A DNA stretch of 61,558 nucleotides, filler included, from Hausera hauseri (lineage: Eukaryota), in assembly GCA_046269625.1 (NCBI GenBank). It is 12 parts of 12 records of this genome, joined end to end, with 100 filler letters (N's around TTAATTAATTAA, not from the genome) between each part and the next. Parts side by side here need not be neighbours in the genome. Positions count along the whole stretch, not along the records: positions 44,736 to 50,185 come from JBJURY010253069.1; 11 more parts are not named here. The stretch is one strand, 5' to 3'. How positions within the stretch are numbered: the stretch's first letter is position 1; each line of letters starts with the position of its first letter. Both the position numbers and the translations under genes were made by a program. Shown one piece after another: positions 13,696 to 59,600 of the stretch. The notes beneath the pieces were generated by a model. The model had not been told where the DNA came from, made no database searches, and saw nothing but the letters and a program-made list of their open reading frames with translations.

Positions 13696-13910
13696 AATAT
13701 CAATAAATGTTTGTTTTGGATTATTCTGGCAAAGGTATCTGTAGAGTGCGAGGGAATGACTAGTTTATAACTTGATTATTATTAGACATGAATATTTAAC
13801 TAGAAAAGAATAATTCAGTAAATTGAATTGTAATAGTTTTAGGTTGTGCTGTATGCGAAAAACTTACATAACCTGCAACGAGGAGGAAAACCCCTGTCCA
13901 TTGTGTAACC

Positions 13911-14497: not shown

Positions 14498-14533
14498 GAG
14501 CATTCTTATAACTTTATAGTATTTTCAAATACA

Positions 14534-14538
14534 AAGGA
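14534..14538 (+). promoter_or_regulatory. Shine-Dalgarno site for folBK
   Basis: AAGGA 8 nt upstream of ATG 14547. Confidence 0.7.
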
Positions 14539-14546
14539 AAGATATT

Positions 14547-35605: not shown

Positions 35606-38471
35606 CTATGTGTCTAAGGACCCTCTTGGCAGATAAAGATGTCTAATTTGCTGAAAAATTGTTAAGACTGTCTGTGGTTTGAAAACTAGATTGTCGTGTA
35701 CTGCTTTGTTTCTGCATGTCCAAATGAGTGTTCTGTACTGGGAGAGCAGTGAGATTAAGAGTGTCTCTGTGTCTTTGGATGTTTTGGGTATCTTGTTTAA
35801 CATTATAGCTAGGTAGATGTCTATTGTTTGTTTGCTTTGTTTTTCTAGTATGTTTTGTAATGCCATTCTAGTTGGTTTTATTATTTCGCAGTCTATGAAT
35901 AAGTGAAATTCACATTCTTGTATACGTCTGTGACATAACTGGCAGGGGATGTAACTGTTTTTTTCAGCTTGGCTAGTTTCTCTGTTGTGGGAGTTATTCC
36001 AAAAAATGACCCTGAAAGTGATTTTCTTCCCTTTAGCTGTAATGACCGGATTATGTAGGTGTGTAAAGGTGTCGGTGTAGTCTGTAATCAAATACTGATA
36101 CCCTCGTTCGATCCTTAAATGTAATGGAGGCGCTTGTACCTTAACTAGATGTTTGTATATAGTATTTGCTTTTTTATAAATAGTGTTTCGTGTCCCGTAA
36201 TTGCCTGTATGTAGAATGGTGTCAGTGTTCCAAAGTAGTGTGGGATTGCATTGTTTAGTTTCGTCAGTCTTGTTAATTCCAGTCCGATGTGATAGTTTGC
36301 CAGTGTAAGCTGTTCTGGCTGTTTTATTATGCTACTTACGTGATTTAAATAAGTCAAAATGAGTTTAAAAAAAAAACAAAAAATGAGTTAAAAAGAGTCT
36401 TACCAGTAGACAATAAACAGACACTACATTACGACCACGAGGTTTTCATCGGGTTCAAAAACATACAGGACGCGGCGAACAGCAACTAGCACAACTACAT
36501 CGAATAAGAAATGAAAGATAGAGAATTACATGGTGTAAGAAGAAGTGAGTAAGAAGTAAGTCCTAGTATCCATGGAGCAGGCACGATTGGCCGTAATGAG
36601 GATGTCATTGACCCCAGAGTGGTTGGGGCCATTGAAGTGATCCGCGACAGCACCTGATCCACGCCGGTTGATGTTCAGCCATTACTTATTTTGCGTGCTT
36701 GGATTTTTGTTTTTATGTCTTGAAGAGCTATCCATCCTTGTCTCTTGTCTTGTATTAGGGTTTTATGTTGAATGCCGTGTATGGTGTGTCTAAAGATGAA
36801 GTGTCTAATGAGTTTGGTTATTTCCTTCATCGTCTGTTGCGGGGGTTCCCTAACTGTGGCTACGTAGATTAGTTTCGGGATTATATATGTGTTTACCACT
36901 AAGCTTCTACCAAATATAGTTGTTGTTTTGTATTTGTATCTATCTAGCATGCATGCGATTCTCTCAACTAGATTTTGCCATGTAGATTTGTGTATTCGGT
37001 TTGGGTGGGCCGGGAAAGTTATTCCATATATTTTTATGCTGTTGGTCGGTGTTAACCCGAAAGGGAAATCGGCTTTATTTTTCCATTTCCCGATTCCCAT
37101 TATGAAGGATTTTTGCACGTTTAATTTGGAACCGCTACCTTCCCCAAATTCCGAGAAAGTATTCAGAATTTGTTTAATGGACTGTTCATTTGGCGGGAAG
37201 AAAGTGGTGTCGTCTGCATATGCACGCAGTTTTTGTTCACCTTTCCCTTGTATGAACAGGCCTTTGATACTTTCGTCCTGTCTAATTTTCTCTAGAAGTG
37301 GTTCAAGGGCTAGGACGTAGAGTAGAGGGGATAGGGGACAGCCCTGCCTGACAGATCTGGTTAACCTGAAAGTCTCTGTAAATGAATGATTTACCAAGAC
37401 CTTGCTCTCGGGTTTAGTGTAGAGAATCTTTATCCAGTCTCTGAAATAATCTCCCATGTTACAGTGTAACAATGTTTTATGGAGATATGAGTGTGAGATT
37501 CTGTCAAAGGCTTTCTCCTGATCTAAAGAAAGGATCGATGACTGACAGTTTTTATGGTGTGCGTAGTGTATGATATCTCGTATGAAATGTGTGTGGCTGT
37601 GAATGCTCCTGTTTGTCACACTACATTGTTGGTCTTCGTGTATGAGTTTGGACATGAAAGGTTTGAGCTTGTTTGTTAATGTTTTGGTTAAGATTTTGTA
37701 GTCCGTGTTTAGTAATGATATTGGCCTGTAGTTTTTGAGTTGTGTCCTGTCTGATTTGTCTTTAGGTATAAGTGTGATGTACGACAGATTAAAGCTAGAT
37801 GGGAGTTCTTTTCTTTGAAAGGATTCAGAAAATACCTTCAAAAGGAAGGGTCCCAACATTGGAAAGAAATGTTTGTAGAATTCTGCCGTAAGTCCGTCTG
37901 GTCCTGGTGATTTGTTGTTTTGCATTTCATTTGCTGCTAGTGTTATGTCTTTTAATGTCATATCTGTATTAAGAGCCTGTTTGTCTTCATCTTTTAGTCG
38001 TTTCGTGTATTTCATGAAACTGTCTTGTATGTGAGTCTGGATTCTTTCTTCGGTGTACAGTTGTCTATAATAGTTTTCAAAAGCCTGTGTTATATTGTGT
38101 GGTTCTGTCTGTATATTCCCCTGGGTGTCTACTATTTGTACTATCTGTTTGTTGCGTTGTACGTTTTGTTCTATTGCCATGTATTGCTTACTGGGTATTT
38201 CTTGTGTGATTGTGTTTAACCTAGTGCGTAAGAGTGCCCCTTGGAATCTGTGTTGTTTATGTTGTTCGAGTTCATCTTGTAATGTGAGCAACTGTGGTGC
38301 GTTCTTGTCTGTTTGTTTCGTCAGTTTAATTGCTTCTTCTATTATACTTTCTTCCTCTAGTCTCTCCCTATGAATTATGGCTGCTATGAGTTTGGTTCTC
38401 TCGCGTATTGTATTTTTCAGCATTTCCCAGTGTTTGTCTATGTGTTCATAGGGTATACCTAATGCAAGCAA
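35606..38471 (-). mobile_element. 5'-truncated non-LTR retrotransposon (L1/Tx1-like) ORF2: RT plus C-terminal zinc finger, interrupted at ~36355-36685
   Basis: KSPGPDGLTAEFY, NYRPISLLNTDYKIL, LDQEKAFDR, VRQGCPLSPLLY, YADD, and CQLC..HLFIDC. Confidence 0.93.
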
Positions 38472-40051
38472 TGGAGACGACGAATGAATTCAGCCAGAAT
38501 TATTGTTTTATATATCAATAAGTATGAAGGACCGAAATAAATCTTGTTATATTCTTAATAATAATTGCGAGTTAAATGATTAAAAAGTGCATTAAATTTT
38601 CCTCATTCTCTATAAGATTATAATGTCTTTTTAGGTTACGAAGAGGAAACATTATAATCATACTTAGAAAATTAAAAAGCTGAATAAATAGTAATATTTA
38701 TATTAAGACTCATTTTTTTCAAAACATATAAGCTATTTCCCTTGAATGGTTTTGACACCGTTAACTCCCTTAAAACGTATTGAATTTAAAGCAAGGGGAC
38801 GTGACAAGAATGCCCAAAGTGAATACAGCTGGATCTAACAGAACATAATGACTGGTCTATTTTGTAACAAACAATGACTGACGTACAGCGTAAATCCTTA
38901 TTTTTTAAAAATATAATCTTTATTTATCATCCAATTTTACACCATAAGAGATACATTTTTTTCCCAAACATATATTGACACTTTTTGTCTGCTTATCAGT
39001 TGCATGCAGCCTTAGAGAAGGACTATTGAAAGGGGTTTTTACATTTATGTGGATATTTTGGGATTTTGACCTTCGTTTGGTCATTTTGACATGGGTAAAG
39101 ACTTGACAATATAAAATGAGGGATATAAACAGGGTAGAACCTGTTTGAGACTTGCAGAAAAGTAAGAAATTTTTACATAAACCTGGTCCGTGAAGAGAAA
39201 GGAGATAATTATGTTGCATCGTATGGGGAGGATTACAGCCAGTTACATGGCACATACAAATTATTAGCGTCAGTCGAGGGGGGTAATTGAAATAGACTAA
39301 CATATGGGGAGGAACATAAGACCATGTAAAGGAGAGTATTATCATAAAAAATGAAATCCATTTACGACGTCCATACAAAACAGAAAAAAAAATTGTGTAC
39401 TGTAGATAAATAGAAAAATTACAAATAGTGTATATTATGTAGTAGTTATATAAAAACATTTCAAGCAATTTATATTGTACAGTTTGTAATATATTGTTGT
39501 TGTTTGATCTCCTCATCGCCGAGTGTCAGCTCTTCTCGATGAGCCCTGATAAGGGCTGTAGTCCTAAGAAGGACTCACGAGTAGTTGAGTTGAGCATTCT
39601 TTCTGTCCCAGTGGAGTCTAGTAGGGTGGACCAAGATCCCCCAGGCTTTAGTGCTTAGCCTCCTAGAAGTGATCCACCTCTCAACTGGGTACCGTGGCGA
39701 TCCTTCCAACGTTGGCCAGAACTGCTTCTGTTTTCATGACTCATTACGAGCAAACGTTGAAAGGTCTTGGCCATTATGTTCGTTCCTGGCCCTGACGAGC
39801 TTGCTAAGCGATCTCAAATCTCAGCATTACTGGAATATATTAAAGCACCGATAATGTGTGTTACAGAGTATGATCATACACTTTGCTTTGTATTATGTAA
39901 TTACAAAAGGAACTTTGTGGCAAATGATAGACCAAGAACACTCACTCCAATNNNNNNNNNNNNNNNNNNNNNNNNNNNNNNNNNNNNNNNNNNNNTTAAT
40001 TAATTAANNNNNNNNNNNNNNNNNNNNNNNNNNNNNNNNNNNNNNNNNNNN

Positions 40052-42016
40052 GTTAGAATTTTCTTCATTTCATCAAAGGCCTTTTGTTCGACATTGGTCC
40101 ATTTCCATTTGATCCCTTTTTTAGTAAACGATACAAAGGTGCATTTATCTTTGCATTGTCCGGTACGTAAGTAGCATAATACCCACACAACCCCAACCAG
40201 TGTTTTAATTCCTTCCGATTCTGAGGTTCCATGCAATCTGATATCTTACTTACTAATGATTGATCCGGTTTCGACCCTCCTTCTCCAACTATATGTCCAA
40301 GGTACGATACAGCATTTTGGGCCCATTTACATTTCTTGCGATTCAGCTTCAATCCAGCTTGATCCAATCTCATGAGTGTACCTTCAATGTCTTTTAAATG
40401 ATCCTCTTCCGTTTTCAACGCAATCATGACGTCGTCTAAATAGGCAAATGCCTGCTGCAGTTTCATTAGCATTTTATTCATCATGCGGGTAAAGATGGCT
40501 GGTCCGGTAGTTATACAAATGGCATAATATTAAATTCGTATATACCATCGTGTGTATTGAACGCCGTTTTATAACGATCTTCCTCCTCTATTTATATTTT
40601 CCAATATCCAGATTGTAAATCGATGGTGGTAAACCATGTAGCTCCCGAAAGTCTATCCAAAGCTTCCTTTACCGATGGTAACGGGAAGAAGTCCTTCATA
40701 ATAAGTGTGTTTAATGCTCGATAGTCGATGCAAAATCGATGCTTGCTAGTACCTTTCTTCTTAACCATGAGTATAGGTGAATACCAAAATCTATAGCTTG
40801 GTCTAATTATGTCGGCCTTTCACATTCGTTCAACCTCCTTAGTTATTTCTGGCCTTAAGGGGTGTGGAGGAGGGTACCATTTGGGCATCTTTTGATCCTT
40901 TTAATCTATTTCGTCGTTGGAATTAGGCTTCTTCTTAAGTGGAATCGTGAGTCTTAGAGTTTTGGCTCGACCAATATTTTATTCATCTCTCGTGATAATC
41001 GAGCTATAGCGACAAAGTAATTCGTAGAATCGACAATATGATTCTGATAAAAATTTAGTCTCAACGTGCGGTAGAAAATCGGCACCCTTATATGGTTTCT
41101 CTTCGATGGTAATTAATGATACTCTATACGTATGTCTTAAAGTGGTATTGGCGTACAGTTTGGTTGGAGTGGGCGCATTATTCGCTATTCTGATTGGCAC
41201 GCGGCCTGTTGATACTCTTGTCAAAACATTTCTGAGCACGAGGTTTGGATCGAGCGATTCCCTCGGCTCGAAATAGATTGGCTGATCGTCATTTTGACGT
41301 ATCTGAGCATATATTAGGATTTCGGTTCTAGATGGTATGATTTCATCCACCGGAATCCACACTTCTCCGAATTTTCTGTCTTTAGTGGTTTTAAATCCTT
41401 TTATTGGGCCAAGTTCTACCAACTTGCCTGCATTAAAATCAATTGCTATATTAGGTAGTTGCCTCAATAAATCACACCCTAACACTACATCATCCTTTAG
41501 TTGCTCCATTACTGAGAATTCATGATGAAAAATTTGTCCCATTATGTGAATTTCTGGTTTCCAACGGAATTTACTTTTCGACGATTGTCCGAATGCTCCG
41601 ATGCTTCCTGGGTATGTCGTAGGAGGTGGATGTAATTGTTTTCGTAAGAATTGGGGTATCGAATCATATTTTATCAACGATATTTTGGATCCTGTATCTA
41701 TTAGTGCATAAACCTCCCAATCGTCAAATTGAATCTTAGCGAAGGGCCTGCATTCAATTACCATACCGTAATAGTTTAATGCTATCTTGGGTTGTCGTAT
41801 GGTAGACACTTTATAACCATTGATGGTTAATTCAGTGGTTCCAACTGGCTGTTCGACTAATTGTCTTAATTCTCCCGTTGGGTATAGTTCGTTATTTGTA
41901 CCGTTCGCATTTTCTACTCCTTGGCTTCTAACTGGCGGCTGTACATCTTGATTTAGGAAATTTCGTGTCTCATAATTTCTGGTAAATATTAACTGCATTT
42001 CATTTGGTTTTGGCAC
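40052..42016 (-). mobile_element. Gypsy aspartic protease and reverse transcriptase (decayed)
   Basis: ALIDTGSKISLI, VVLGCDLL, RFCIDYRALN, DLQSGYW, YLDDVMI, YLGHIV. Nearly collinear with 44736-45780. Confidence 0.93.
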
Positions 42017-42030
42017 TCTAGGCGAGTAAA

Positions 42031-44500
42031 TTATACCATGGCCGTCTCCTGCTGGTCGACGATGTGGAGCAGACGTCTTTCCGTTTCATGGATCTTACGC
42101 AATATCCCGGAGCGTTTGGTTCCTTCGTAAGGATCTTCTAGATTGAATGGCTTCTGATAGAGGTCTGTCTGGCACGAACTCATAGATTGTTTCTCACAAT
42201 TTTCATATATAGGTGCCGTTTGCGGCAGTACCGGTAATGGTAGTTTCATAACAGAGTAATTTTTGTGCCTATTTGGCCTGAAAATGACATCTCCCTTAGG
42301 CTCGTCATCATCAGAATTATTTCTTCGCGTCTTATTTTCTACGAATTTTTGCCTGTAATCAAATATGCGTCTTTTACGTTTTCGATTATGGTAGCCAACA
42401 TGTCGTTTTACCTCTGTTTTCCATTTACTCTGTTTATAAGCCTTTAAGAATTTGCCAAAAGGAGTAATAATGGTCGTTAAAATTTTGCACAAAAATCTTG
42501 TCAAGGTAAATATCTCGTATCCATTTATAACGGCTTGAATTATTGCTTTTATCAGTTGCATTAAGAAATATATCTCTAGAAATCCTGACACTGTTTGTCT
42601 GAATATCAGAAAACTTCCCCAAATTTTGTACAATATTGATGTAGTTACCTTCTTGTAGTAGACAACACCAAGTAATGACTCCCATTTTGCGTGGTAACGT
42701 GAGTCCTCTAGTACTTTATGCATCGCTCTATTCAATTCATGTGTGCGCTGTCGAGGAAAAGCGAGAAATTGTCTAAACGCCTCTACTTCTTTTGGTCGGT
42801 AAATACCCTTCGCAGCTGTATCTTGAAACTTATCATTGGTTATTCCTTTTATCAGATTTGTACCTGTTAGCTTGGTAGGTGGTGCAATAATACCACCATT
42901 GGGTAAACTTACCCAGTCGGTTCCGCTGCGTCTAAACATCGGTTCTCCTAAACTAGTTTTACAGTCTCTCAAAATGGTTGGTTGAGTGGCGTTCGTCAAC
43001 AATACTCTGGTAATTGGTGTTGCTAACCTCGGTATGTCTTGATATATTACCGGAAGCTCTTGTATACACCTCTTCTCTTCCACATTAATCGGTACATCTT
43101 TCTTCTCGCACTCATACGTCAATAACACTTCTCCGGTTACTCGTCCAAAAACACCTTCCTTCATCGGAATTATTGGTGATGCCAACTCGGGGTTTGCGTA
43201 TATTAGAGCTAATTTAGTTCTCATGATTTCCAAATCCAATTTATAATCGTTTGTTATCATTTTACGATATAATTCGGCTATTCCGGCTTGTCCCTTATAG
43301 TGGAAATAGTCGTCTCTGTTCTTCAGATAGTCTTCAATCCGGATGACCTGAGTCTCGAGTTTGAACGTTCTGGCGTTTATTTCTGTCTCGGCTATAAAAA
43401 AATGCTTTGTAGTTGGTGGCATACATTACCACGTCGCATCTAGAGAGCATATCTTTCTTTATAAATTTTAATCCGTGATCATCAGAAATCAGTAATGTAG
43501 GTGTGGATTGTTCGGCCACATCCTCTCGCGTTTTAGTGTTAGTTTCCGGGCTACTTATGTATCGTTTTCCCGTTGTAACGTTGAATTTCAGTTCTTTAAT
43601 TCTAATAAAATTACAATCAGTCTTGGCTGGAGGTTCCCAGATTACTACAGAATTCAGGAATGGGCATGTGCCATCCTGAATATGGCATTTGTGGTTCTCG
43701 GTGTAAAGCTTAGTAACACTATGGAACATCACTTTCTGCATACGCATTTCAGTTTCGTAAAAATCAACCACTAGGACTTTCGGCTCTAATCCTTTTCCGG
43801 TATCGTATTCCACACCTTGGCAATGTCCGGTATGCATGTCTAGCCTTCCAGCCGCTATTTTGTATACTCTGATTATTTTCCCCTTCTGTATCTCTAGTTC
43901 CATGCCATCCCACTTTATTCGTCCCGTCTTTCTTGCTTGCTTACAATGTTGTCGTTCTAAATTCATCGGAATTGGTGGAGTCGTCGATTTGATTATTGAT
44001 GAGTGTCCATGTATCAGCCCACAATGGAAGATGCTGCGAGATCGTCGCAAAATACATTCTACCCCATATTATGCAATTAGTTCACGTTGTTGGTATAGTA
44101 CGTAACTTTTTTCTTTTGTTTCTAATTTGTGTGGTCTTGCGTCTTCACACATTTCCAAGTCCATTAGTGAGTAATTTTGTCCGAGTCTAAATTTGTCACA
44201 ATCGTATACCGTGACTGCACCCATTTGTTTTATCAACATCATCATGGTCAGAAAGTTTATTAGCCAATTCGATTCATTTCCCCTGCGATTTCCAGTTACA
44301 TTTCGTAACAATTCCCCGAACCTATTGTTATCGAAGAAGAATCCACACTGATGTTCTTTTTCTTTTTCGAATAACTTAGACCAGTTCACTTCTCGGAGTA
44401 GCTTTCTGGCAGCCTTCCTTGCTAAGCTAGTAGCCTTGATGAACTCATTTTCTCGATTTGGATTGGTTTTAATGGCCAGGTAGAGCAGCACTTTTCTCAA
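42031..44500 (-). pseudogene. Chuvirus-like envelope glycoprotein (frameshifted over three ORFs) upstream of Gypsy pro-pol
   Basis: Signal WLINFLTMMMLIKQMGA then VYDC..YSLMDLEMC. FHCGLIHGHSS, C..ARKTG, AGRLD..GHCQG, GEVLLTYEC..CIQELPV..PITRVL, PMF, GIY..FPRQR, W-x2-F..LIKAII..INGY, then a basic tail. Order matches my recollection of Chuviridae-type G proteins. Confidence 0.8.
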
Positions 44501-44735
44501 TTTCTCTATAGTATTCTCTATATAATTTTCTCGATTATCATTTCATCACTCAAGGTGCTCTTGGCTAGTTTGCACCGGAGGCCTTTCATGGCCTTGGCGG
44601 CATTAAATATGGCCTTCTCTTTCTCATCTAACATANNNNNNNNNNNNNNNNNNNNNNNNNNNNNNNNNNNNNNNNNNNNTTAATTAATTAANNNNNNNNN
44701 NNNNNNNNNNNNNNNNNNNNNNNNNNNNNNNNNNN

Positions 44736-47557
44736 CGAATACCCCCCCCCACGTCGAAACAAAATTTTCACCGGAATCCTACTGCCGATTCTACAAATTA
44801 CTTTGTCGTTGTAGTTTGATTGTCGCGAAAGATGAAGGAGATATTGGCCGAGCGAAAACCTTAAGGCTTACAATTCCGCTTAAGAAGAAGCCTGGCTCAA
44901 ACGACGAAATAGACTTGGAAGATCAAAAGATGCCAAAATGGTACCCTCCACCACACTCGTTAAAGCCAGAGATAGCCAAAGAAGTTAAACGAATGTTAAA
45001 AGCTGACATAATAAGGCCGAGCTATAGATCTTGGTATTCACCTATACATATGGTTAAAAAGAAAGGTACCAGTAAGCACCGATTTTGTATCGACTATCGA
45101 GCATTAAATACACTCATGAATAAGGATTCTTTTCCGTTACCATCAGTAAAAAAAGCTTTGGACAGACTTTCGGGAGCTAAATGGTTTACTACACTCGATT
45201 TACAATCTGGATATTGGCAGGTAGAGATAGAAAAGGAAGATCGTTACAAAACAGCATTTAAGACACACGACGGTATATATGAATTCAATGTCATGCCTTT
45301 TGGAATTACTACTTGATCAGCTATCTTTACCCGCATGATGAACAAGATGCTAATGGGACTGGAACATGCGTTCACCTATTTAGATGACGTCATGGTTGCC
45401 TCGAAAACGGAAGACGAACATTTAAAAGATATTGAAGGTACACTCATGAGGCTAAAACAAGCTGGATTAAAACTGAATCCAAAGAAATGCAAATGGGCTC
45501 AAAATGCTTTATCTTACCTTGGACATATAGTCGGAGAAGGAGGATCGAAGCCGGATAAATCATTACTAAGTAAGATATCGGGTTGTATGGAACCTCAGAA
45601 TCAGAAGGAATTAAGACACTGGTTAGGTCTGTGTGGGTATTATGCTACTTACATACCGCACAACGTGAAGATAAACGCACCCTTGTATAGTTTATTGAAA
45701 AAGGAAATCAAATGGAAGCGGACCGATATCGAACAAAAGTCTTTCGATGAGATGAAGAAAATTTTGACTATTGAACCTGTTTTAAGATATCCTGATTTCA
45801 ACCTACCATTCATAATCAAAACGAATGCCAGTAAGGAAGGTAGCGGATATGAACTGGCTCAGAAACGAGAAGACGAGGAGTTAGAACACCCAATCGCATA
45901 TGGAGGGCGTTCTCTAAAGAAAGCTGAGAAGAACTATTCCGTAAAAGCACTGCTACATTTTAATTTATACGTCTATGGACAAAAGATCGTAATCGTTACT
46001 GATCATAAGGCAGTTACAACCTTAAAGGGTAGAGCAAATAATCCGACGTGTAGACTGAACAGATGGATAGACGAAATTTCACGTTATAATATTGAATTCC
46101 AATACAAGCCAGGAAATAAACACATCGATGCCGATGCATTATCGAGACTTAAAACTAAAACAAGCGCAGTTACTGTAATGAGGAAAGCACACCTCGAAGA
46201 CTTAGTAGAAAGACAGCGGACTCTCGTGCTAGATAAAGCACTAAAGATTGTTGACGAACAGAGAAAAGACAGGGTTATACAACAAATTATCAAGTTCGTT
46301 GATACCAACGTAACACCCAAGGATCACCAGTTACGGAAACACCTACGACGATATGGTCACAAATACTGCGTTGCTGGAGATTCGAACCACGAAAATATGT
46401 TATACTACGAACGAAAAGGACGAAAATTAGTCGTCATACCAAAGGGACTACGAGCAGAAGTACTCATAGCCGAGCATGATTCATACTTAGCCGGACACGT
46501 CGTGGAAAAAGACATTGGAAATAACATTAAATAAGTACTATTGGCCGATCATTTACATTGACGTGAGAAACTGGATAAATGCTTGTGAAGTGTGTGTGAC
46601 CAAGCAAAGAAAAGTGAAAACCTATGTCGCCGAGCTTAAACCTATCAACGTGCCTGATAGACCAACGCAAGCAATGTCTATGGATATTGTAGGACCACTG
46701 CCTACAACACACAAGAATAACAAATACATTTTGACCTGCGTAAACCGACTGACTCACTTCGTCGAACTTGTAGCGTTATTAGACCAAAAAGCCGAAATCT
46801 TGGCAGAAGCGGTAGTCCGGAAGATAATTTGCAGATATGGGCCACCCGAACAAAGTTTGACAGACAGAGGAAGAAACTTTACGAGCGAATTATTTGATAA
46901 AATTACCAAGATTTTCGAAATTGAACGACTAACTACTACAGCTTATTACCCTCAATGTAACGGAATGGTCGAGCGGATAAACGCGACCGTTATACGAATC
47001 TTATCGACAGTAGTCGCAAAGGACCAGAATCATTGGGATGAGTTCTTAGAAGGTACACAGTTTGCTATTAATACTACACCACATCCTGCGACAGGATTCA
47101 CTCCATTTTTTATGATGTACGGAAGAGAAGCTGTGCTTCCTACAGATTTAGGACTGATTCCATATACAACCCAAACGGAGGATTTAGAACCAAATTTTGT
47201 CGAAGTATTACAATCAAGAATGCAGAAGTGCTGGGAGATAGCCAAGGAATTATCTAGAGAATACCAGGAACAGTTCAAGAAGAAATACGGTAAGAAAGCT
47301 AAACCTCACGATTTAGAACCGGAAATTGGGTTTATGTACACCACCCAGTGGCAAAGAAAGGCACATCTCTTAAACTTACCAGAACAGGCAGAGGACCTTA
47401 TGAAGTTACTAAAATTACGCCGACCACAGTTTATATAAATAAAAACGGCAAGGAAGAGGTCGTATCAATTCAGAGAGTAATTAAAACGGAAATAAGACCA
47501 GGTAAACGCTATAATTTGCGTTCGAATAAAGTTAATAAGGAAAGGAAAACATCGTAA
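44736..47557 (+). mobile_element. Gypsy pol (RT, RNase H, integrase) with stops and frameshifts
   Basis: RFCIDYRALN, MPFG, YLDD, ADALSR, H-x4-GH..CEVC, MDIVGPLP, LTDRGRNF, PQCNGMVER, GPY. Confidence 0.95.
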
Positions 47558-48844
47558 ATCGTAACCAGACCGATATCATATGTACAAATAATTCTTGCCC
47601 CATCGTTAATCGCTTCTTATGTACCCAAGGTGACATCAATAACTAGAGCCGAAAAACTACGATAAGCAATGAAACGCAGGGATATCCAGAACATTCAATC
47701 ACTTAGAGTACACGATATGGATTGGAGCAAACCATGTGCGTGGTTCGAAGCAAGCGAACCCTTTCGGAGTTATGTGAAATTTCAAATAATATTTGTAACC
47801 GGAAACACGATGAGACCATGTGATTTTCCGTACGGACATCACAAAAGATGTTGTGATCTAAATTTTGGAAAAGCCTACGCATATCGATTTCAAATGTTTT
47901 ATTCTAATCAGTTTGGAGCTCAGGCATATATACTTTTAGAACTTGTAATAAGAATGCCCCAACAAAAGGAGGCAAATCAGGCCAAGACGGACGCAATAAT
48001 CCAAAATACTGACTCGTTTAAAAGACTCTTAGATTATAACATTATGGGAATTTACAAGGACTTAAAAAATCAGTGTATACAAATTGAGACCAAAATAGAG
48101 CTGCCTGGAGACCGACAAATTTCTGTCCGATTTATACCATTGAGGTCTTCCGTCCCTACTCCGGAATATTGTTATCTGGCCAGACGCCGACCTACTACGT
48201 GCTGTGTAATACAACTAGGACAGGATTATCAGTTACAATTGGACTTGTACAACACGTATCCCGGAGAATAAAGCACTTATTTAAGAAGATACCGTCCGAA
48301 AAACGGAATATGGAAACTTCCATTCCCAACCACTACGAGAATACCATCCATTGCTCCAAGAACGACTCTCGCTACTACGATCATTACTTCGGACGAAATG
48401 CCAGGAAGCATACCAGTTAAGATTTTGGCAAAAAGCGATAGAATTCTATTTTACGCTGAAGAGACGTTTGATCAAGACGTCAAAATTGAATGTCACACTT
48501 TGCACACCTACCAAGTTGTGATCCTGAAAAGGAACAGTCAGGAAATTGAATGCAGGTCATTACGACCGCAACATGACTATATAGTCAGAATTACCGCAAA
48601 TGGTAAGAACCCTAAAACTTATACAGTGCGGACTCTAGACAACAAGGTAGAAGTAATGCAGTATAGAGATCTTAGTACGCAAAATGTGTTTCCCACGAAA
48701 AGTTCTACTGAACCGAATAACTTACCGATAATAGCTATATTTAGTTTGTTAATTTTCGTTCTTATCATATTAACAGCGATGATTTTTCTAGTTTCCAAAA
48801 ATTATAAGAAACGCTGTAAAATCGAATGGGAGATAAATGGGTAA
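47558..48844 (+). pseudogene. Post-integrase type I membrane protein with three FN3-like Cys-rich domains
   Basis: ISYVQIILAPSLIAS signal. PCAW..CDF..RCCDLNFG..Y, QCIQ..YC..TCC..Y, IECRSLRPQHDYIVRI. TM IIAIFSLLIFVLIILTAMIFLV followed by KNYKKR. Confidence 0.75.
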
Positions 48845-48865
48845 AAAGGCACCGAGAAGGACCTT

Positions 48866-48990
48866 ATGATAGCATAACCTGACAACTACAGATCGGGTTA
48901 TCCTATCATCAGACAGAGAAAATGTTTTGTTTCTAAACGATGATCTGTCTTAGGATTGGCCTTTATTTTTATTTCAGCAGAGTAAGTATG
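48866..48990 (+). promoter_or_regulatory. Conserved RNA hairpin, 3' splice-acceptor-like site and ATG
   Basis: ATGATAGCATAACCTGA-10nt-TCGGGTTATCCTATCAT (48866-48909), then CTTTATTTTTATTTCAG|CAGA GTAAGT ATG. Homolog at 58010-58134. Confidence 0.65.
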
Positions 48991-50090
48991 GCCGAGAAGG
49001 CGAAGGATCCAACAGTCAGTTCCAATCACGATATGGACGATTTCTTGCAGCAGCACGTCACTGTTCTCAAACCATTATCCAAGAGTTTATATTGACAAAT
49101 CGAAGAAAATTGGAAAACCCAAACCTATGTAGAATTCAATCAAGAGAGTAAAATACCAATCGGACTAAAATGGGGCTTAGAAGAATATCGATTGGTCCGA
49201 TTATACGCCATGAGAAGTCTCAAGGATGCGCTAGCATATCTTTTGAGAGAGCTGATCCCATATAAGCCGACACATCAGCAATTGTACATACATGTCGCGG
49301 ATGGAGAAATTCAGTACAGGATCGTAGGACAATCCTGGAGTACACAAAAAGAACAACAATGGAAGTTTAGTACTTATGATCTATGTTGCTATAGCCTCAT
49401 GAATTATGCTCTGAAATTTACAATTGCAGACCTTCAGACCAAAATCATGATCGAGATGACGTGGCGAACAGAGGTAATGAAGCCGCTACCACCGTTATTA
49501 TATATACAGAAACCATCGGAAGATGAAATAGAGCAAAACGGGGAATCTTACAGATTAATCCAGGATGGCCAAAATACTCGGATATTGGCCGTAAACTTTG
49601 GAGAAAAGGATGACGGATGGTATGTTTCGATCGAGGTCTCTATAAGAAATACTAATGGAGAAGAAATCGTAAATAAAATAATCGCCCCTCGAGCTAGAGT
49701 AAAGGATGCTTTATCTGACGTTACAGGAATTACGAAAGTGCAGCTCGAAAAAGAAAAGGATTTCTTAGAGATCCAAGAAGACATAAGCCATTGCTTATAT
49801 AGGTATATTGTTACCGGATTCCGAGTGTACGAAGCCTTGGAACGATTAGGAATTAGACAAGAATACATAGTCGGAATTCGAGAATTGAGCCGCAACCCAG
49901 CGGTGGTGAGCAAGTAGAAAATACGCTAATGCAAAAAAGAGGTTGTCTACTTCCCTCCTCAGCCTCCCGCGAATCACAATTCAAAATGATGTTAGAGGCC
50001 ATGAATGGCGAACGGCTTAAATTTCCCAAACTAATGACAGCAAGCCAACGAACTAGATTTATAAAGGACACCTATGACCCTTTACGATGA
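48988..50090 (+). pseudogene. Gypsy accessory ORF with degenerate DEDDh (REX4/ISG20-like) exonuclease domain
   Basis: EVSIRNTNGEEIVNKIIAPRARVKDALSDVTGIT..DFLEIQEDI..IVTG..GIREL, homologous to the C-terminal domain of the 5844-9722 ORF. ATG 48988 is in frame with 49192; internal stops present. Confidence 0.65.
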
Positions 50091-50285
50091 GATCACAAAT
50101 GGAAACCTAGAAGTCCCTTACAGAATGCGATATCTGACAACAACCCCAAGGCACTGATGCAAAAATTCCGAAAAGGGTTTAGTGANNNNNNNNNNNNNNN
50201 NNNNNNNNNNNNNNNNNNNNNNNNNNNNNTTAATTAATTAANNNNNNNNNNNNNNNNNNNNNNNNNNNNNNNNNNNNNNNNNNNN

Positions 50286-52480
50286 TGCAATCTGTGGAAA
50301 ATAATTCTAAGATGCTCATGATGTTGTTTTATGGAGCTGGAAGCGACTAATATGTCATCTATATATGGGTGAGCAAAATCAAGTCCAGAAAGAACGGTGT
50401 CAGTGTGGCACTGAAAAATCTGAGATGCACTACGTAGGCCGAAAGGCATGAAGATGTATTCATAATGACCAAACGGTGTGATGACAGCAGTTTTTGGAAT
50501 GTCATCAGGCACAACTGGGATTTGATGGTAGGCCTTTTTCAGATCAATAGTAGAATAAGTATTAATGTTGCTGAGGCTATGAATAATATCCTTAATGAGT
50601 AGTAGTGGATAGGCATCTGTAATAGTTAAATTATTTAATTGTCGATAGTCGCCACATGGCCTATAGGTCCCATCTTTCTTTACTGCAACATGAAGAGAGG
50701 AGACTCATGGAGAATTTGATCTCGGAACGATGCCAGACCTTTCCAGTTTATTAAACTCCTGCTCCACAGCTTTACGTCTGCGTGGAGGTAAAGGTCTGAC
50801 CTTCTTTTTGATAGGCCTCTGATGCTCCGTTAGTATGTGATGATAAGTTGAGGATGAGAGCTTGAAGTTGATGTCTCTTTTAACTATTCGAAAGCATGAG
50901 GTGGTGAGTCTAAAAATAAGAATGATTGAGGCGTATCATTAGAAAGAACAGCTGCAGTGACTGAAGAGAGGCAACTGGCATAGCTGCTGTCGACACCTAA
51001 TTTGGATTTCTGTTTTAGAATGGATATAGGATTTTCGTTCATAATTGAAGGTGTACCGACTTTATCGGAAGTTTTTTTAATAGATGACGAAACGTTCAGC
51101 ACGTTTTCAGATGAGTGCAATGATTTGCTTGCTAGATTATCTGCGAGACACATGTTTAAAGTTGAAATCGAGTTTCTGCTGAGAACACAGCTATATTTGC
51201 AATTTACCAATAAATCATGTGCGGCAAGAAAATCTGAGCCTATTATGGGAGATTTAATGTTGGCCACGTGGAACTTCCAGACAAACTTATCTGTCAAGTT
51301 TGGAAATGTAAAAGTCAATTCCGTGTTTCCTGCAACGTGCAACGGTTGTCCATTGGCAGTGAAAAGTAGAGGACAGGAAGTTATAATGGATGTAGGGGTG
51401 AAAGACAACGAAAGGAGTGAAAAGGCAGCTCCTGAGTCTACAACGAAGTCAATATGTGAAGTATCGCTGCACAAAAGTGCAGCTTTCAACAGAAAGACTG
51501 AAGAGGCGGTGTTGAAACGGCCAGAAGATTGAGCGATATTGCCTGCGCCAGAATGTGCCGTAACATCTGGCGGCATTATTAGTTTTTTGGAGGATTTGGA
51601 GGAAAGGAAGAAGAGGAAGAAAAGCTAGGAGATTTTGTGTTATAATATCTACAACAAGGCACACATGATCTGGCCTGTGACTGATATTTGTTGTGGTATA
51701 TACAAATAGGGTTATTTACAGTGTATCGCTAACTAAAGAATCGACAGACCAAGAAACATTTCCTTGCTTCCTTTTGAAAACGCATGTGGTAGAAACAAGT
51801 CATGCGTCCGCCAGGTGAAATGGACCGAGAAAAGTGCATTGAAGTGCTTCGCTCCCGTGAACGTCTGGTTTCACTTCGTCGAGGCCCATTAAGATTACTT
51901 AGTTGGCTAGTAATGCCCAAGATCGAATGTTGTAGCATGTCAAACTGTTGCTGCATCATTTGCAATTGTTGAGTAAAGAGTGTTGTATCTGTAGTTGGAG
52001 CACATGTGGTTGCAGCCGCAACAGGGAGAAAACTATTAGTATGAAGAATCTCAAAATATTTGTCAGCCATTATTGCCAGTTTTTCAATTGCAGTGGATTT
52101 GTCAACAACGGTTAACAAGGCTCTGATTGAGGTGGACAAAGACGATAAGAAAAAACGGCGAATTAAATCCGCGTTATTCGTAGAGGTCACTCCTAGCGCA
52201 CTGAGCTGCGAAATGGCTGTTTGGAGAAAGTCAGATGGCTTTTGGTTCCCTATCGTGTGGTCATTAAAATACTTTTGTATTATGTGGTCAATCGAAGAAT
52301 CCGTGATATGCAGTACAGCTTCACAGAGTGTCTCGTAAGGCGTTGATGATTGTAGCAACTCGGAGGTATTGTTAATCTGCTGCTTGACGTTGGCATGCAG
52401 AAGAATTAAAAGGCTATTGGCTCGCATAAAAGGAATCTGTAATAATGTTCGATTTTAGCCACTGTTGGTGGAATTGGAGC
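50286..52480 (-). mobile_element. Second, conventional Gypsy family: gag, protease, RT (decayed)
   Basis: gag GNQKPSDFL and CFYHMRF..ARKC. Protease FVVDSGAAFS..IIGSDFL. RT RPCGDYRQLN, KAYHQIPV, KTAVITPFG..MPFGL, YIDDILVAS. Confidence 0.9.
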
Positions 52481-53283
52481 CATGGTTAACTGGAGTTGTT
52501 TTTATTGAGGAAGAATTCAACACAAAGTACGTTTAATGAACCTCGTGACTGTTGGGAGTGTGGCAAACGATAGATATTGCCCGTATTCGTGGATTTGTCA
52601 ACCGTGCAGGATGGATTTGGATCCGATACACCCCGGAGGCGAAAATGGAGCATAAGGTGGATGACTTGATGTTCGTGGCATACGAACAACAAGAGTGAGT
52701 CGACGGGATGTACCGTGATACCTCGATGTGTGAAATAGAAATTGGCAGTGTCGAGTGAGGAGGATAGAAAGGTGTATAGTAGCTGCGCCGTGGAATTTGG
52801 TGGAGCCTTAATGGTCGTCATATGTTTATTGTTAATGAAGATAAGGAAGGAGTTGCAGCGAAGCAATTCCAGGAGAATGGTAAAATGCAAAAGTAGCTTG
52901 TATGGTTTGTTTCCGTGTTAATAAAAGATATGGGCGTGCAGTCGGGCTAGAGGTGTCAAGTGATGAATGGAGTAAGGAAGTGTGCAAAGATAATAAGCTA
53001 AAGAACCTTTTAAAATGAAATAGAATGGGAGATATGTAGGGTTTGCAAATGCAAAGGACGCGGCCGCACCGGTGGGCATGAATCAGTAAAAAGAACTTCA
53101 CCCACTGTGTTTCAATATCGGAATACTGGGTGTCGAATTTGGCCACATTTGCAGTGTTTTCCCCAGTGGATCATCCTTGTTGATTAAATAAATGCCAGTC
53201 TCGTCGACACCTCTCGAATGTTTGTTACCGACAGACTTAAAGAGGATTTTGTGAAGAATCGTGACGAATTTTGATCCCGTTGA

Positions 53284-53660
53284 CTAATCCTTGCTACTCC
53301 AGACATTGAGAATATTGACAGTGAAGCAATCGCCTGATGCTGCCAAACTTAACGGAGTGTAATCGGATAAATTGCGGTGTTCGATCATGGCGTGCCTGTG
53401 GACGAGTTCTTCAACTTGAACTTCCTTTACACTGAAATATATTTTAGGATAGCTCTGCGATTTGGATTTGTCAAAAATGTGTTGTCGCTTCAAAATTTTT
53501 AATATTGCACTGGTTTTCCGTTCAAACAGCCTCGAATTCAGCACAAATAACTAACAAGAATTTCACATCTTTTAAATATCCGTTCAGGATTGACACATGC
53601 AACGGAGTATAGGGATTTTTGTCCCGATGTTCAAAATTGGCACCACTATGATATGGAATG
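53284..53660 (-). pseudogene. Ankyrin-repeat fragment resembling MASK/ANKHD1/ANKRD17
   Basis: GANFEHRDKNPYTPL..AEFEA and EHRNLSDYTPLSLAASG, the latter nearly identical to the MASK-family repeat EHRNVSDYTPLSLAASGG. Confidence 0.65.
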
Positions 53661-53699
53661 AAACGAAGTTTGTTCATGTAGGTTGTTTGGCTTATTTCA

Positions 53700-55870
53700 A
53701 ATAGATAATCAGCTTCACCCTCTGCAATCTCCTCAATAATTTGTAAGCTCTGGTTTTCATTACTTGGTGCATCACCGAGATATACCAATTTCGATTGCAA
53801 TTTCTTAATGCGTTCACTTTCGAATTTGTCAATGCTTGCTTGAACATCTTCAAATGTGTTATAAATTTTGCATTTTGATCTCAGACTTATGATCAGGTCA
53901 AAATCCTGGCCTTCGATAAGAACAGAAAATAGACCTTTAGATTTTTTAGCATTTACTTCATCTTCTGACTGTGACACAACAAATGTCTCCAAAGATTTTT
54001 TAAACAGACAGTATTGTTGGAAATACAAAAGGTAGATGTAAAGCTTTTTTCCGATACCACCGGTTTTAAAATACTGACTGCAGCTTTCACGTAACGTATA
54101 GATGAGGTTAATTCGAAAATAATTATCTTGAAAATCGAGTTGTAATTCAACAGAATTATCAAGAGAAACTCCAAAAGAAATTAGAGAATAAAGGACATTG
54201 AAAACTACTGCAGCACTGATTAATTTATACACATAGAAGTTCCCAAGACAACGAATAACACTAATTTTGTCTTGACAGATACAACCAATTGCTCGTGGTA
54301 AGATGTCAATATAGCCAGGACACTGGCCAAGTACGAACATTGTTGTATTTAAGTCGCCACACCTCAGTGAATGTACGAATGGCAAATTTCATGAACTGTC
54401 TGTTATCCCATTGGAATTTCCGAACTATCTTGAATATTTTGTCGTTGTTATGCTTGTTCAGATCGACGTTCAATAATTTCCTTAGGAGTTGTTCTTCAGT
54501 TGTCAATTCCTCGACATCGTAAAATTTTCCAGTGCTATCCGGTAGATTGCAGTAGTAATACGCATTCTCGATCATCGTTGGATACTTTGCTTCCAGAACG
54601 CTTTTAGATGCTTTGCGCATCATTATTTTCAGATAGGCACTCATCCGCAAACGACGAGGCTGTGATCGATACAGATCACGACCGGATGTCTCCAACAAGG
54701 TAAAGAGCATGTAGATATTGTGATGTTTGAATTGTTGGAGTAGCAGTTTTATACACCCCATGGCGTCGGTTTTCTTGAACACGTTGGATTTTACGAGTTT
54801 GCCGATAAATCGGACTTTTTTGATTTTCGACTTAAGATTCGGTTGAATTTTCTTGTGAATATGCCACTTCAATTCGCCGAGCAACAGCGACGATACCTCC
54901 GTACCGATGTCATTCGTCATGTGACTGATATTCGCTACGAGACGTGCGTAGAACGGCAGTAGGTCGTATCGATTACGGGACACTGAAAACAGTTCCTTTT
55001 CCAATTTCTGTTGATTGGATTTAGTGTTGTACTGTTCACAGAAGTCCTGTGATGCCTTGTCGATCAAATCCCGATTGATGCAATTCGTCAAGGAATTCAT
55101 GAAATTGTCAAATGGCATTTTAACGTTCTTCTGACCAGTCTTGTCGTCTTTAACTTCTTCTTCGACGATCGGCTTCTCCGGCTCCTCGAATGTTGCCGTG
55201 TCGCTTAACTCTTGATCAGGCTCCGCTTCCAGTTCTTTTTCCACACTATCAATGTCCAATTCTTTTTACAAATATAAAATAGTCTGGCTATTTCACAACA
55301 TACCACTTTCGATTTCCTGTTCTTCTTCCTCATTGTCTACTTGCTGTTCGATATCTTTGTAGCAGATCTGAATGAAGTTTACTCAGTGTTAAAATTCCTC
55401 AGCACAAACCCCCGGTAAAATGGCCTTCAGGTCACACAGATCCTGATAGAACGAACGTGTGTCGTCATCTTCAAATAGTGCATTTGGATCGTCTTCTTCC
55501 GTCTACACATCGTTAGAGATGCATTAACAAGTATTGTCAACAAACTTCATCACAACCGATACCACCCGGATGTTCACCGTCTATTTAAATTTATTGATAA
55601 ACCATTAAACCATTGAATGGTATTTACCTTTGCTCTCCAAATCTTTGAAGTCAGGAAACGGCTTGTTCAATAAATCTGACAATTGTAAACAGTGTTGATT
55701 TAGTTTTTCAAATTTTTCCTTAAAGTCAGCCAATCGATCTTCTCGATCTTTAGAAACTTCGCCTTTTGATGCAAGAATCCGATTGTTTGTATCTCTCGTA
55801 TGTATCATGGATTTATGATATTCTTTTTTATTTGCATATTCAGCAAAATTGACACTTTTTTCATACAGAT
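53700..55870 (-). pseudogene. UPF2: Decayed partial UPF2 (NMD factor, MIF4G domains 2-3) with a 47-nt GT-AG intron at 55581-55627
   Basis: RILASKGEVSKDR, FEDDDTRSFY, NCINRDLID, RYDLLPFYARLVA, VRFIGKLVK, FKHHNI, IENAYYYCN, VFNVLYSLISFG, YFQQY..KK. Frameshifts and stops present. Confidence 0.85.
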
Positions 55871-56671
55871 CAATGTCTTCAAATTGTTCTACAGCTATTT
55901 CATCTACAAGAGGTTCATCGGCTATTTTGTCAGTAGTATCAATAAATTGTTCATCCGCAACATCAACTATTTTGCCACTGTTAAGTTGTTCAGCAACTGT
56001 GTCATTTGGGTCAACAATTACTACTTTGCCATTGTTGTCAACATCTATTCGAATACAGCACGATTTGTATTCCATTGTAAAAATAAACTGTTTCCAACTA
56101 TCCAGTGTATTTATACTAAATTTTACTCTAACAAATCAGTCTGATTGGTTGGAAGTTTATATAAATAGTGAATATGACTGAAATTTTAAAATGTTAGTAA
56201 TAATTATAAATCACACAGATGCAAAATATGTTCAATATATTGATTTTAANNNNNNNNNNNNNNNNNNNNNNNNNNNNNNNNNNNNNNNNNNNNTTAATTA
56301 ATTAANNNNNNNNNNNNNNNNNNNNNNNNNNNNNNNNNNNNNNNNNNNNCATAATTTGTACGTTGTAATGCGTCTAGTCTTTCTCGCAAATCAGTTTTTG
56401 AATCATTTATGGGATTTGTCCGTGTATTGGTTTGGAAATTCTGTTCCAAGTAATAAGCAGCGGGTGGTTTCATTTCAACTACTCGATTATTTTTACCACG
56501 TGAAAAGTATTTTAACTGCGATTCCTCTGCTCGGTATACTGAGCATGTCGTTTTTCCATTAATTAACGTCCATTGTTCCAAACAATATCGACTATTTGCT
56601 AAGATCACATAACCTTGCCACAAATTGGCTTCACATACGGGGCAAATATTATCGGTATCATTATCTAAATC

Positions 56672-59600
56672 TCAGTCTGTCACACAAGTTATGTCTTGAA
56701 ACAGTAATCCCTTCGGGTTCTTGTATATGTATCCATGTAGTTGTTTTTGATTGGGATCTATTGAACTTTTTCGTGGGTCTCCATTAACAGCTATTAAAGT
56801 CCACTTAATCACGGGTTGAGCATCTAAGTCTGGAATTTTCATTCTCTTATATTGTTTTTTCATTTCTATTTTGGTTTGGTTGTCGGCTGGCACGGTTATT
56901 TTTTTAGTTCCTGTTTTTGACTTGAATACCGGTGTCAAATATCTTCCTAGCTTTGGGTCGATCCGCGCATAGGCATTTTCATGCATTTCCAATACTGGCA
57001 CTGTGTAGATATAAAATACCGCTTCTTTGTTTTTTCCATGACTTACATATTCTGCCATTATTAGGATGCTAGGTTGTTCTTCTGTGTCCTTGTGGTCTTA
57101 TGTGGTTATTATATCCTTGTCTTGTCTCCTTTTCAAAACATTCACTTCCGTAAGGATTTGTTCAACATGGGTTGATCCTTTTTCTTTCTTCTTAAGAAAT
57201 CCGAATATTGGTTTCTTTTTCTTTTCTGGAGATGGGTCTCTCAATTTAGGCTTTTGGTTGATGTTCCTTGACAGCTTTCTATTTCCTTTGTTTTTGTAGG
57301 CACCTGGAATCCATAAGTAGGGTTACTGGATTTGTGTTTGGTAGTATCTTCTTGATTTGAAACTGAAACCGTAATCTGCATGTTATTGTCCCTTTCGGAT
57401 TCAATCATTCGCATCGGCGAATACGGATAAAATTGCTTCCGGTGGAGGGAATTCAATTCTGTCGGGTTTGTACTGCTTTGAAGGTTATTTTTGGGGTTTA
57501 GGGCTAACCATTCCTGTTCCCATTTGATCGTGGCGTAAATATTGCGCAAGTATTGCGTTCTTTTGGTAGCAAATAGCTGTCGATTGATTCTGTATTGGGT
57601 TCCGATCATGATTTCTATTATCGCCTTGAAGTGCGTTTCCATGGTCATGGGAACGAACCGGTTTACATTATCCATCTTCTCTCTAATCTTAGGATGAGCC
57701 CAGAATTCTCGTATTCCCGCTATATTTTTGAGCTTTATTTAATTTACATTTTAGTAGATTCCGTAATTTGTACGGCCGAGCATCTTCATTGTTTCGCATG
57801 GCATACAACAGTATTATTCGATTTTCTTCTATGATTCCCTTTAAACTGTTTCGTATCTCATCTACTTTATTGTATTCCGTTGATAATTTGTTCTGTAATT
57901 TTAAGTGTATTTGCCTGTCGATGGCCTTAGAATGTGGAGTTATAACTGTCGCGTTTGTTTGCAAAAATCCATCGATGTCCAAGTAGGTGTTGTTACTGGC
58001 TTCCATAATACTCACCGTTCTGAAATAAAATAAAATAAGGTTAGTCCTAAGACAGATCTTTGTTTAATTAAAAAACAATTTCACTGTCTGATGACAGAAT
58101 AACCTGATCTGTAATTGTCAGGTTATTTTGTCATACAAATCACTTTGGTAAACCACCCTTATTCCTCTATTACGATTTCTGCGCTGCTTTTTGCAATTTT
58201 TGGCAACTATATAAAGGGACGCAATTAATATTAACAAGACAAACGCTGATACTCCGATGGTCGATATAATAGATAGGGTTGTTAATTCAAATGTTTTCTG
58301 TGTTGTCAGATCTGTAGTAATTGTTTTCTATGTCTTGACCTTTTTGTGAATCTGGGTAAATTCTTTCTGCTAAAGTACGTAAAGTGATTGTCTGATTTTG
58401 CTTTCCTGCTGCATTAATTTGTATTATGTATTCTGTCTGAGGTTTTAATGCGTTACATTCTACTTGTCGTGTATTCTGTATAAGTTTTACTTTTTGCCCG
58501 TTATATAAGGTTTGACAGTTTATTTCTACATCGTAGTTTAGTACTACCTCAACAAAGAACACTTCTATCCTGATGGACCGAATATCTGATAGGTATGTCT
58601 TCAATTTTTATTTTAGATATATTATTTATCGTGATAATTCGAGCGGTCGACTTTTTAGTCGAGGTTTTCATTGAAATTTTCCAAATTCTATATTCTGGGT
58701 AGTAGATTCGTAATTGTATGCTTGGTTGATTAGGCCGTATTTCGTATAAGTCAAACGTTATTTTAAATTCTTGGTTTACGGGTATTTTACAACACTGATG
58801 TTGTACACCAGCACGAATGGAACAATATTCTATTTTTGGAGATGGTCCTATTACTGCCTCGAACACGATACTGATTTCCCGATTGACGGTTAGTTCGTCC
58901 GATTATTTACTTGAATACATTGTCTTATTCACAGAGATTTTCTGGATATTTTCTTTTAGCAGTCTTATATCTGGATCAGTGGATCTCAACATTTCGTTCA
59001 GTTTTGCTCCATAATGCCTATTCCAAAGAGGAATAACTAGTTGAATTTGTGGTTTTATTTCATAAATTTTAGATAATTTTGGTAGGTACATTCGATAGGT
59101 CAGATTGTAAGTATGTCCGAAATCTATGTCACAACATTGCGTACGTTCTCGGAACTCAAAGTCACAATTCTTCGTTTCTTTTGTTATTACATCATCTAAA
59201 ACAATTTCGATCCCTCCAGAATTTCGGTGTGGTTTTCGCGTTTTAAATACGACGCATGTGCAGTTAGGTGAGTAATAGTGTATCCTTATTTCTTGTAATT
59301 TTCTTATATCCTCTTGTCCTTCATTTCCTTTGACTGTTCCATTCTTTTCCGTTTTAACAACCTCCAATCTCGTTTTATTGTTGTACCAGTACCACCATTT
59401 AGCTTGTGTTCTCGAAATATAGGAGGTAATTAGCGATAGTGCTAGAACTATTTGGACGTACGATATTGGTCTATTAATTATGGAAGACGTTTTTGTTTTC
59501 TTTTTATCTTGATGCGAGTTAGATCGCAAATTGTAACATCTTTCAAGCTTTATTTTTGTTTTAACAACTCTCTGAATTGATACTACTTCTTCTCTGCCAT

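Follow-up and report, generated by a model that had tools for sequence, protein, structure and literature searches.

We describe a conserved motif which, on our reading, sits in a Burro-like Ty3/gypsy element of Hausera hauseri (assembly GCA_046269625.1), at the junction between a membrane-protein ORF fused to pol and the accessory ORF that follows. The UGA at the top of its first hairpin ends the membrane-protein ORF, a point missed by a sequence-only reading of this DNA, and the motif carries both splice signals and a stop context of the readthrough type. Because neither set of signals explains the other, our best reading, which we hold tentatively and at a little under even chances, is that the motif is a dual cassette, a spliced mRNA and a leaky stop providing two routes to the accessory protein. 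By the first route, translation of the spliced mRNA would start at the ATG behind the acceptor and give a soluble accessory protein. By the second, low-level readthrough of the UGA would extend the membrane protein at its cytoplasmic tail by the accessory domain. We infer that splicing and readthrough would both occur.

The motif belongs to an abundant family of Ty3/gypsy elements

The window, i.e. the whole stretch of 61,558 nucleotides that was analysed, consists of 12 short scaffolds chained by N linkers, and the two copies of the element, A and B, are on different scaffolds (Table 1). They are 72% alike over pol and about 72% overall, and the motif occupies homologous positions within this one family. 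Reverse transcriptase (RT), RNase H and integrase all scored above the Pfam cut-offs. A sister copy shares 83% identity with copy A over 1017 nt; its Monjiviricetes-type fusion glycoprotein matched PF24664 above cut-off, with PF00077 (protease) directly after it, so that env precedes protease and pol, the same order as in Burro and in the flatworm errantiviruses. In both the giant gypsy elements Burro/GYPSM1 of planarians (PMC6431247) and the GAG-ENV-POL errantiviruses of Platyhelminthes (PMC13524379), a mononegavirus-like fusion glycoprotein likewise stands directly before protease and RT, and both share accessory ORFs and high copy number with the present family. Burro-like elements exceed 25 kb and encode an ORF1 of about 5000 aa with BIR, MATH, ankyrin and BCL2-like domains (PMC6431247); the likeness is judged here from scaffolds of 4-6 kb, too short to show full size, gag or the BIR, MATH and ankyrin domains. 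The region between protease and RT, dUTPase-like in Burro-like elements, gave no Pfam or PDB sequence match.

The abundance of the family was apparent from one sequencing run of unknown kind (X1), containing 0.38 of the words searched, in which 14,307 contigs map to copy A at 80% likeness, X1 depth not being copy number. The search of sequencing runs listed none of RNA. Scans for related loci found none among viral contigs, and in the metagenome 80 loci were kept of 223; these are distant gypsies (30-41% identity over integrase) that lack the motif and gave no tblastn match to membrane protein, accessory ORF or env. Word-indexed protein searches gave no match.

Table 1. Coordinates of the element copies, the ORFs around the motif and the components of the motif
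Feature	Position in window	Strand	Remarks
Copy A, decayed Ty3/gypsy	44736-50185	+	5.4 kb
Copy B, decayed Ty3/gypsy	56350-61558	-	
Third copy	24685-27553		73% alike to B; breaks off before transmembrane segment and motif
Sister copy, 5' part	40052-44635	-	Monjiviricetes-type fusion glycoprotein, protease and RT, in this order
Copy A membrane protein, pol-fused	47666-48844	+	Three predicted FN3-like domains, transmembrane helix; internal stop
Copy B transmembrane and cytoplasmic-tail ORF	58118-58327	-	Ends at hairpin UGA, 58120-58118
Copy A hairpin 1	48866-48909	+	44 nt, 16 of 17 pairs, 10-nt loop
Copy B hairpin 1	58134-58091	-	44 nt, 16 of 17 pairs; contains UGA and CAR-YYA
Copy A UGA and CAR-YYA	48880-48888	+	In loop
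Copy B UGA and CAR-YYA	58120-58112	-	
Copy A hairpin 2	48911-48950	+	Second in-frame stop, 48934-36
Copy B hairpin 2	58089-58050	-	Second in-frame stop, 58066-58064
Copy A branch-point segment	48951-48962	+	Predicted to pair alternatively with 48895-48905 (11 bp, one bulge)
Copy B consensus branch point	58038-58049	-	Predicted partner of hairpin-1 3' arm, 6 bp
Copy A pyrimidine tract and 3' splice acceptor	48962-48977	+	
Copy A donor hexamer	48982-48987	+	Sole one on sense strand of copy A
Copy B tract to ATG	58004-58037	-	Acceptor 58020, 4 nt, donor 58015-58010, ATG 58006
Copy A accessory ORF	48988-49917	+	In frame with hairpin stop; one internal stop
Copy B accessory ORF, start	57689-58006	-	39.5% identical to A over 86 aa

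Several other features of the window are recorded here as separate observations. Two intact bacterial-looking folate genes, identified by eye as dihydropteroate synthase and an aldolase-pyrophosphokinase fusion, lie at 13814-15359; amid animal DNA, their scaffold is probably a contaminant. An ORF resembling a type B DNA polymerase (30918-32603) looks Polinton-like by eye and had no Pfam match, and a fragment 75% identical to it is found on the neighbouring scaffold (29453-29934). Broken, intron-free pieces of a MIF4G domain at 53522-55265 (-), UPF2-like by eye and with a weak ankyrin match, are possibly a retrocopy. Positions 1-4028 form a 4-kb array built from units of 8 and 12 nt, in which strand skew is extreme (AT skew about -0.83), and a non-LTR reverse transcriptase ORF of 604 aa is present at 36675-38489 (-).

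The motif is conserved between otherwise divergent regions

Conservation of the motif between divergent regions had been claimed from the sequence, and it was borne out. The copies at 48866-48990 (+) and 58134-58010 (-), where 0 chance matches are expected, are 79% identical over 128 nt (E 1e-24), against flanks that align near 50%. Identity in 60-nt windows is 0.75-0.82 in the motif and 0.30-0.63 elsewhere, and the proteins flanking it are 35-40% identical between A and B. Among X1 contigs the motif is also far better conserved than its flanks, with depths of 36,616 and 39,134 in its two bins, compared with 763-5,004 in the seven preceding bins and 3,178 in the following one. No indel reached 5% of X1 depth from 48155 to 49017, and none of the 10 indels listed falls inside the motif; readings of X1 variants rest on the 40 listed of 1576.

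Scans for the motif gave 0 matches in viral contigs in one scan and a single chance match in another, none in metagenome contigs, and one, judged to be chance, in prokaryote genomes. The viral and prokaryote matches are without the predicted fold (z -0.3 and +0.8) and were rejected. A search of 44736-61558 with Rfam returned 4 matches up to E 5, none of them on the motif.

Two hairpins, with pairing but no significant covariation

Hairpin 1 is much more stable than its 200 shuffles (z -6.0 in A and -5.2 in B). The 44-nt length and 10-nt loop described earlier are correct, while the 17-bp stem is not fully paired, each copy having one mismatch, at position 8 in A and position 7 in B. The compensatory change at stem position 5 and the U-G/U-A pair at position 15 were also found as claimed. 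The further claim that the latter change is tolerated only on the sense strand did not hold: the argument from strand cancels because the antisense fold of copy B is the more stable one (-37.4 vs -30.7 kcal/mol) and its mismatch turns into a G-U pair on the opposite strand. Nor can the hairpin be called covarying, as one two-sided change in two sequences was matched by 251 of 500 shuffles; that change sits at a silent third codon position of the 5' arm. Downstream, the second stem and then the pyrimidine tract, acceptor, 4 nt, donor hexamer and ATG are all present in the order reported.

The stop in hairpin 1 terminates a pol-fused membrane protein

The 5' arm of hairpin 1 codes for the last residues of the membrane protein. 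The terminus, Tyr-x-x-Ile-Thr, is common to copy B and to both of the two family relatives, and fits a tyrosine-based sorting motif. Copy A encodes this terminus as well, in a frame other than that of its membrane protein, which is one base off the hairpin stop and terminates at 48842-44. No indel of 5% X1 depth is listed at this place, so the offset may be shared across the subfamily of A; inspection by eye showed no canonical slippery heptamer here.

A profile search with the membrane protein among 1.84 billion representatives returned 4 proteins, two of which, P0002 (479 aa, uninterrupted) and P0003, are members of the family; a host fibronectin-like protein and a bacterial histidine kinase were set aside. 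In the model of P0002 (mean pLDDT 62.8), three domains rich in beta strands are accompanied by a transmembrane helix. Foldseek matched this model best to tandem fragments of fibronectin type III (E 7e-8), domain orientation keeping the TM-scores low. In copy B (58903-60000, -), integrase continues without a stop through a basic linker and a signal-peptide-like segment into an FN3-like ectodomain; the segment is hydrophobic and a cysteine-rich region follows it. A surface protein is fused to the end of pol in this copy, though the element also has env before pol.

The context of the UGA is that of a readthrough stop. CAR-YYA, the TMV-type readthrough consensus (PMC3159437), fits both copies, and the sole difference between their loops is one that the consensus tolerates. 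By composition, CAR-YYA after a stop has a chance of 0.003, the motif having been chosen post hoc. Only 3 of the 701 sense-strand stop triplets in the three copies are followed by CAR-YYA, and two of the three are these UGAs. In the window as a whole the bare stop-plus-hexamer string occurs 7 times against 5.8 expected, so that it counts only because it is the ORF's own stop. The ATG follows this stop after 108 nt in copy A and after 114 nt in copy B. Despite two indels each distance is divisible by 3, and such in-frame spacing in both copies has a chance of 1 in 9.

The downstream accessory ORF had no Pfam, PDB-sequence or homologue match. Matches to DEDDh exonucleases in the Atlas scored 0.79, below 0.8, and are a weak lead; the fold model (pLDDT 35.7) is unusable. 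Within this ORF lies a second island of X1 depth (49286-49467; 26,398 vs 3,178 and 3,789 in adjoining bins), which spans a D-x-E motif behind a beta strand, an arrangement that we take to be that of exonuclease motif I. The last ORF of copy B (56350-56671, -) ends in a cysteine pattern that by eye is degenerate RING-like, with no RING match in Pfam.

The motif carries the top-ranking splice signals of the sense strand

The pyrimidine tract of the motif has 16 pyrimidines in 20. Among the 395 sense-strand YAG sites of the three copies, 5 have at least 15 of 20 upstream pyrimidines, and the two motif acceptors tie for the top; nowhere else on the sense strand do these elements have splice signals as strong as those of the motif. 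The acceptor-4 nt-donor pattern was found twice in the window, with 0.00 expected, and the donor hexamer of copy B is one of two. The branch point lies 18 and 21 nt from the AG. It had been called perfect in one copy, which is true of B; in A the branch position itself deviates, and 99.96% of X1 depth has another state here, one that fits the consensus. In both copies the ATG context is strong (A at -3, G at +4). Flatworm acceptors follow UUNYAG (PMC12582326). None of the 15 X1 joints listed, of 106, is at the splice sites. The earlier interpretation thus holds in part: a cis element for subgenomic splicing or translation is supported by the strength of these splice signals and of the ATG context.

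Just past the accessory ORF of copy A, at 49945-50185, a strong acceptor (49961-62) precedes an ORF that opens with ATG and is in a different frame. A splice from 48982 to 49961-62 would excise the accessory ORF of A entirely. No counterpart of this acceptor was found in B at the same threshold.

A predicted exchange of partners between stop and branch point

In the whole element, the 3' arm of hairpin 1 is predicted to pair upstream, with probabilities of 0.87-1.0 at paired positions. When the sequence is removed through 11 nt past the first base of the stop, the arm is predicted to pair instead with the segment behind hairpin 2. The refolded helix of arm and branch point has six pairs common to A and B, with probabilities of 0.82-1.0 (0.88-1.0 in B), and is predicted to begin 12 nt after the stop in both copies. 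The gain upon refolding was reached in 7 and 20 of 1000 shuffles of the tail and in 57 and 53 of 1000 shuffles of the arm, so these controls are modest. Moreover, the alternative helix was found post hoc in two non-independent copies with only 6 bp common to both, and could be a by-product of the branch consensus resembling Ile-Thr codons. The stem of Sindbis virus has 11 bp, a 1-nt 3' bulge and a 12-nt spacer (PMC3159437), as does the helix predicted for copy A.

These folding predictions suggest a ribosome-triggered strand-swap, in which one strand would pair either over the stop or over the branch point, a possibility that we consider rather unlikely. In ribosome-free RNA, hairpin 1 would hold its own 3' arm and leave the branch point open. 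With a ribosome at the stop, the 5' arm would be unwound, freeing the 3' arm to bind the branch-point segment and to enclose hairpin 2 in a longer stem which, 12 nt past the stop, may stimulate readthrough. The stop-paired state would then leave the branch point free for nuclear splicing, and the branch-paired state would serve as a readthrough stimulator upon arrival of the ribosome.

Alternative explanations

The main competitor of the dual cassette is splicing alone, possible although in our judgement on the unlikely side. Under this explanation a regulated 3' splice site, used in cis or in trans with a spliced leader, makes the accessory mRNA; the hairpins would tune the acceptor, the donor hexamer would bind U1 or skip to an ORF further on, and the context of the stop would be incidental. 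All the splice signals and the strong start context, present in both copies, agree with it. Gypsy elements offer known or predicted cases of spliced env-like mRNAs (PMC2829016), and spliced leaders on flatworm retrotransposon transcripts have been suggested (PMC12582326). The stretch between the stop and the ATG speaks for it too. A second in-frame stop, UAA, follows 18 codons past the UGA in both A and B, and between them the linker from UGA to ATG has about 3 silent vs 14 replacement codon differences. From these counts the linker would seem to be without amino-acid constraint, which argues against readthrough. If the second UAA is ancestral, readthrough would add a short tail only, which again counts against it. 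However, at the first base of the second stop, 49,907 of 49,960 X1 depth units (51 contigs; 99.9%) have another letter, so that the bulk of the family appears to be open at this codon and the window copies A and B closed. Splicing alone does not explain this sense codon, and it also leaves unexplained the unpaired loop with CAR-YYA directly behind the ORF's stop and the in-frame spacing of both copies.

To an RNA element of stability, export or packaging, beside the main stop and guarding against decay of a genomic RNA whose 3' region is long, we give a small chance. Analogues are the Rous sarcoma virus stability element and the constitutive transport element. The position at the end of a long ORF, with at least 1.3-1.8 kb of element behind, the strong predicted structure and the nucleotide conservation far above that of the flanks would all fit. 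Against it, Rfam gave no match, and neither the frame relation nor the splice consensus is predicted. It can be compatible with the dual cassette.

Readthrough alone, as in SIRE1 or alphaviruses, is a poor prospect. It accounts for the stop, its context, the frame and the predicted 3' stem, but it must treat the splice-like motifs as arising incidentally from coding frame and stem, whereas branch point, tract, acceptor, donor and strong ATG come in the right order and spacing, a combination with practically no chance expectation.

A true 4-nt micro-exon or recursive site, with both splice sites used on one molecule so as to reach the later ORF, is slightly poorer still. The spacing is exactly 4 nt in both copies and A has the second strong acceptor; however, B is without it at the same threshold, and direct splicing to the later acceptor would need no 4 nt. 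In recursive splice sites, AG and GT are adjacent. A micro-exon is not needed to explain the data.

Finally, a small-RNA precursor, as had been suggested, or a SECIS-like selenocysteine signal deserves scarcely any weight: the hairpin is stable and an in-frame UGA is followed by a stem with tandem G-A pairs, but Dicer needs about 22 bp and this stem has 17, Rfam gave no microRNA or SECIS match on the motif up to E 5, and with respect to the helix length and internal loop that SECIS elements require, the helix above the G-A pairs has 5-6 bp and the internal loop below them is absent.

An H/ACA snoRNA (hinge of 1 nt), a kink-turn (bulge misfit) and an SL RNA (donor after the U-rich tract, the wrong order) were ruled out by eye, against the features that define these RNAs.

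Discussion

With the type I (TMV-like) and type II (alphavirus) viral signals (PMC3159437), the motif shares CAR-YYA, UGA-C and a stem, here predicted, after a 12-nt spacer; benyviruses also pair the hexamer with a predicted stem (PMC3159437). It differs from them in three respects. The stop before the hexamer is UGA, not UAG; the stop lies inside an upstream hairpin that sequesters the 5' strand of the predicted stem; and the 3' strand of that stem is the branch point, the RNA viruses of PMC3159437 having no splice site there.

Among retroelements, splicing or stop suppression is known in SIRE1, BAGY2 and Athila (PMC2829016). SIRE1 is, like the present element, an LTR retrotransposon in which an in-frame stop separates an ORF behind pol (PMC2829016, PMC2194720). 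It is, however, a Ty1/copia element and reads into env, whereas in the present Ty3/gypsy element a membrane tail would be extended into an accessory ORF; and this ORF, unlike that of SIRE1, is 35-37 codons past the stop and has its own acceptor and ATG. In Tca2 of Candida, the gag-UGA-pol junction has a UGA followed by a conserved predicted structure, as here; it resembled a readthrough site, and readthrough was not obtained in yeast (PMC2194720), which calls for caution in the present case. Neither readthrough nor fibronectin is mentioned in the available main texts of PMC6431247 and PMC13524379, and the term 'retrotransposon' is absent from the available text of PMC13517186. In the main texts of the open-access literature searched, we found no combination of splicing and stop suppression in one compact element with a predicted mutually exclusive fold. 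As regards the hexamer itself, the pol-env stop of SIRE1 reportedly has this context.

If the strand-swap is true, one 125-nt cassette would give both a soluble and a membrane-tethered accessory protein. The dual cassette, if true, would explain how genes behind a very long polyprotein are expressed in giant env-before-pol elements. It would also add to the known recoding sites one from an invertebrate retroelement family whose numerous natural variants lend themselves to covariation analysis, and it points to an FN3-like surface protein whose tail could be extended on demand.
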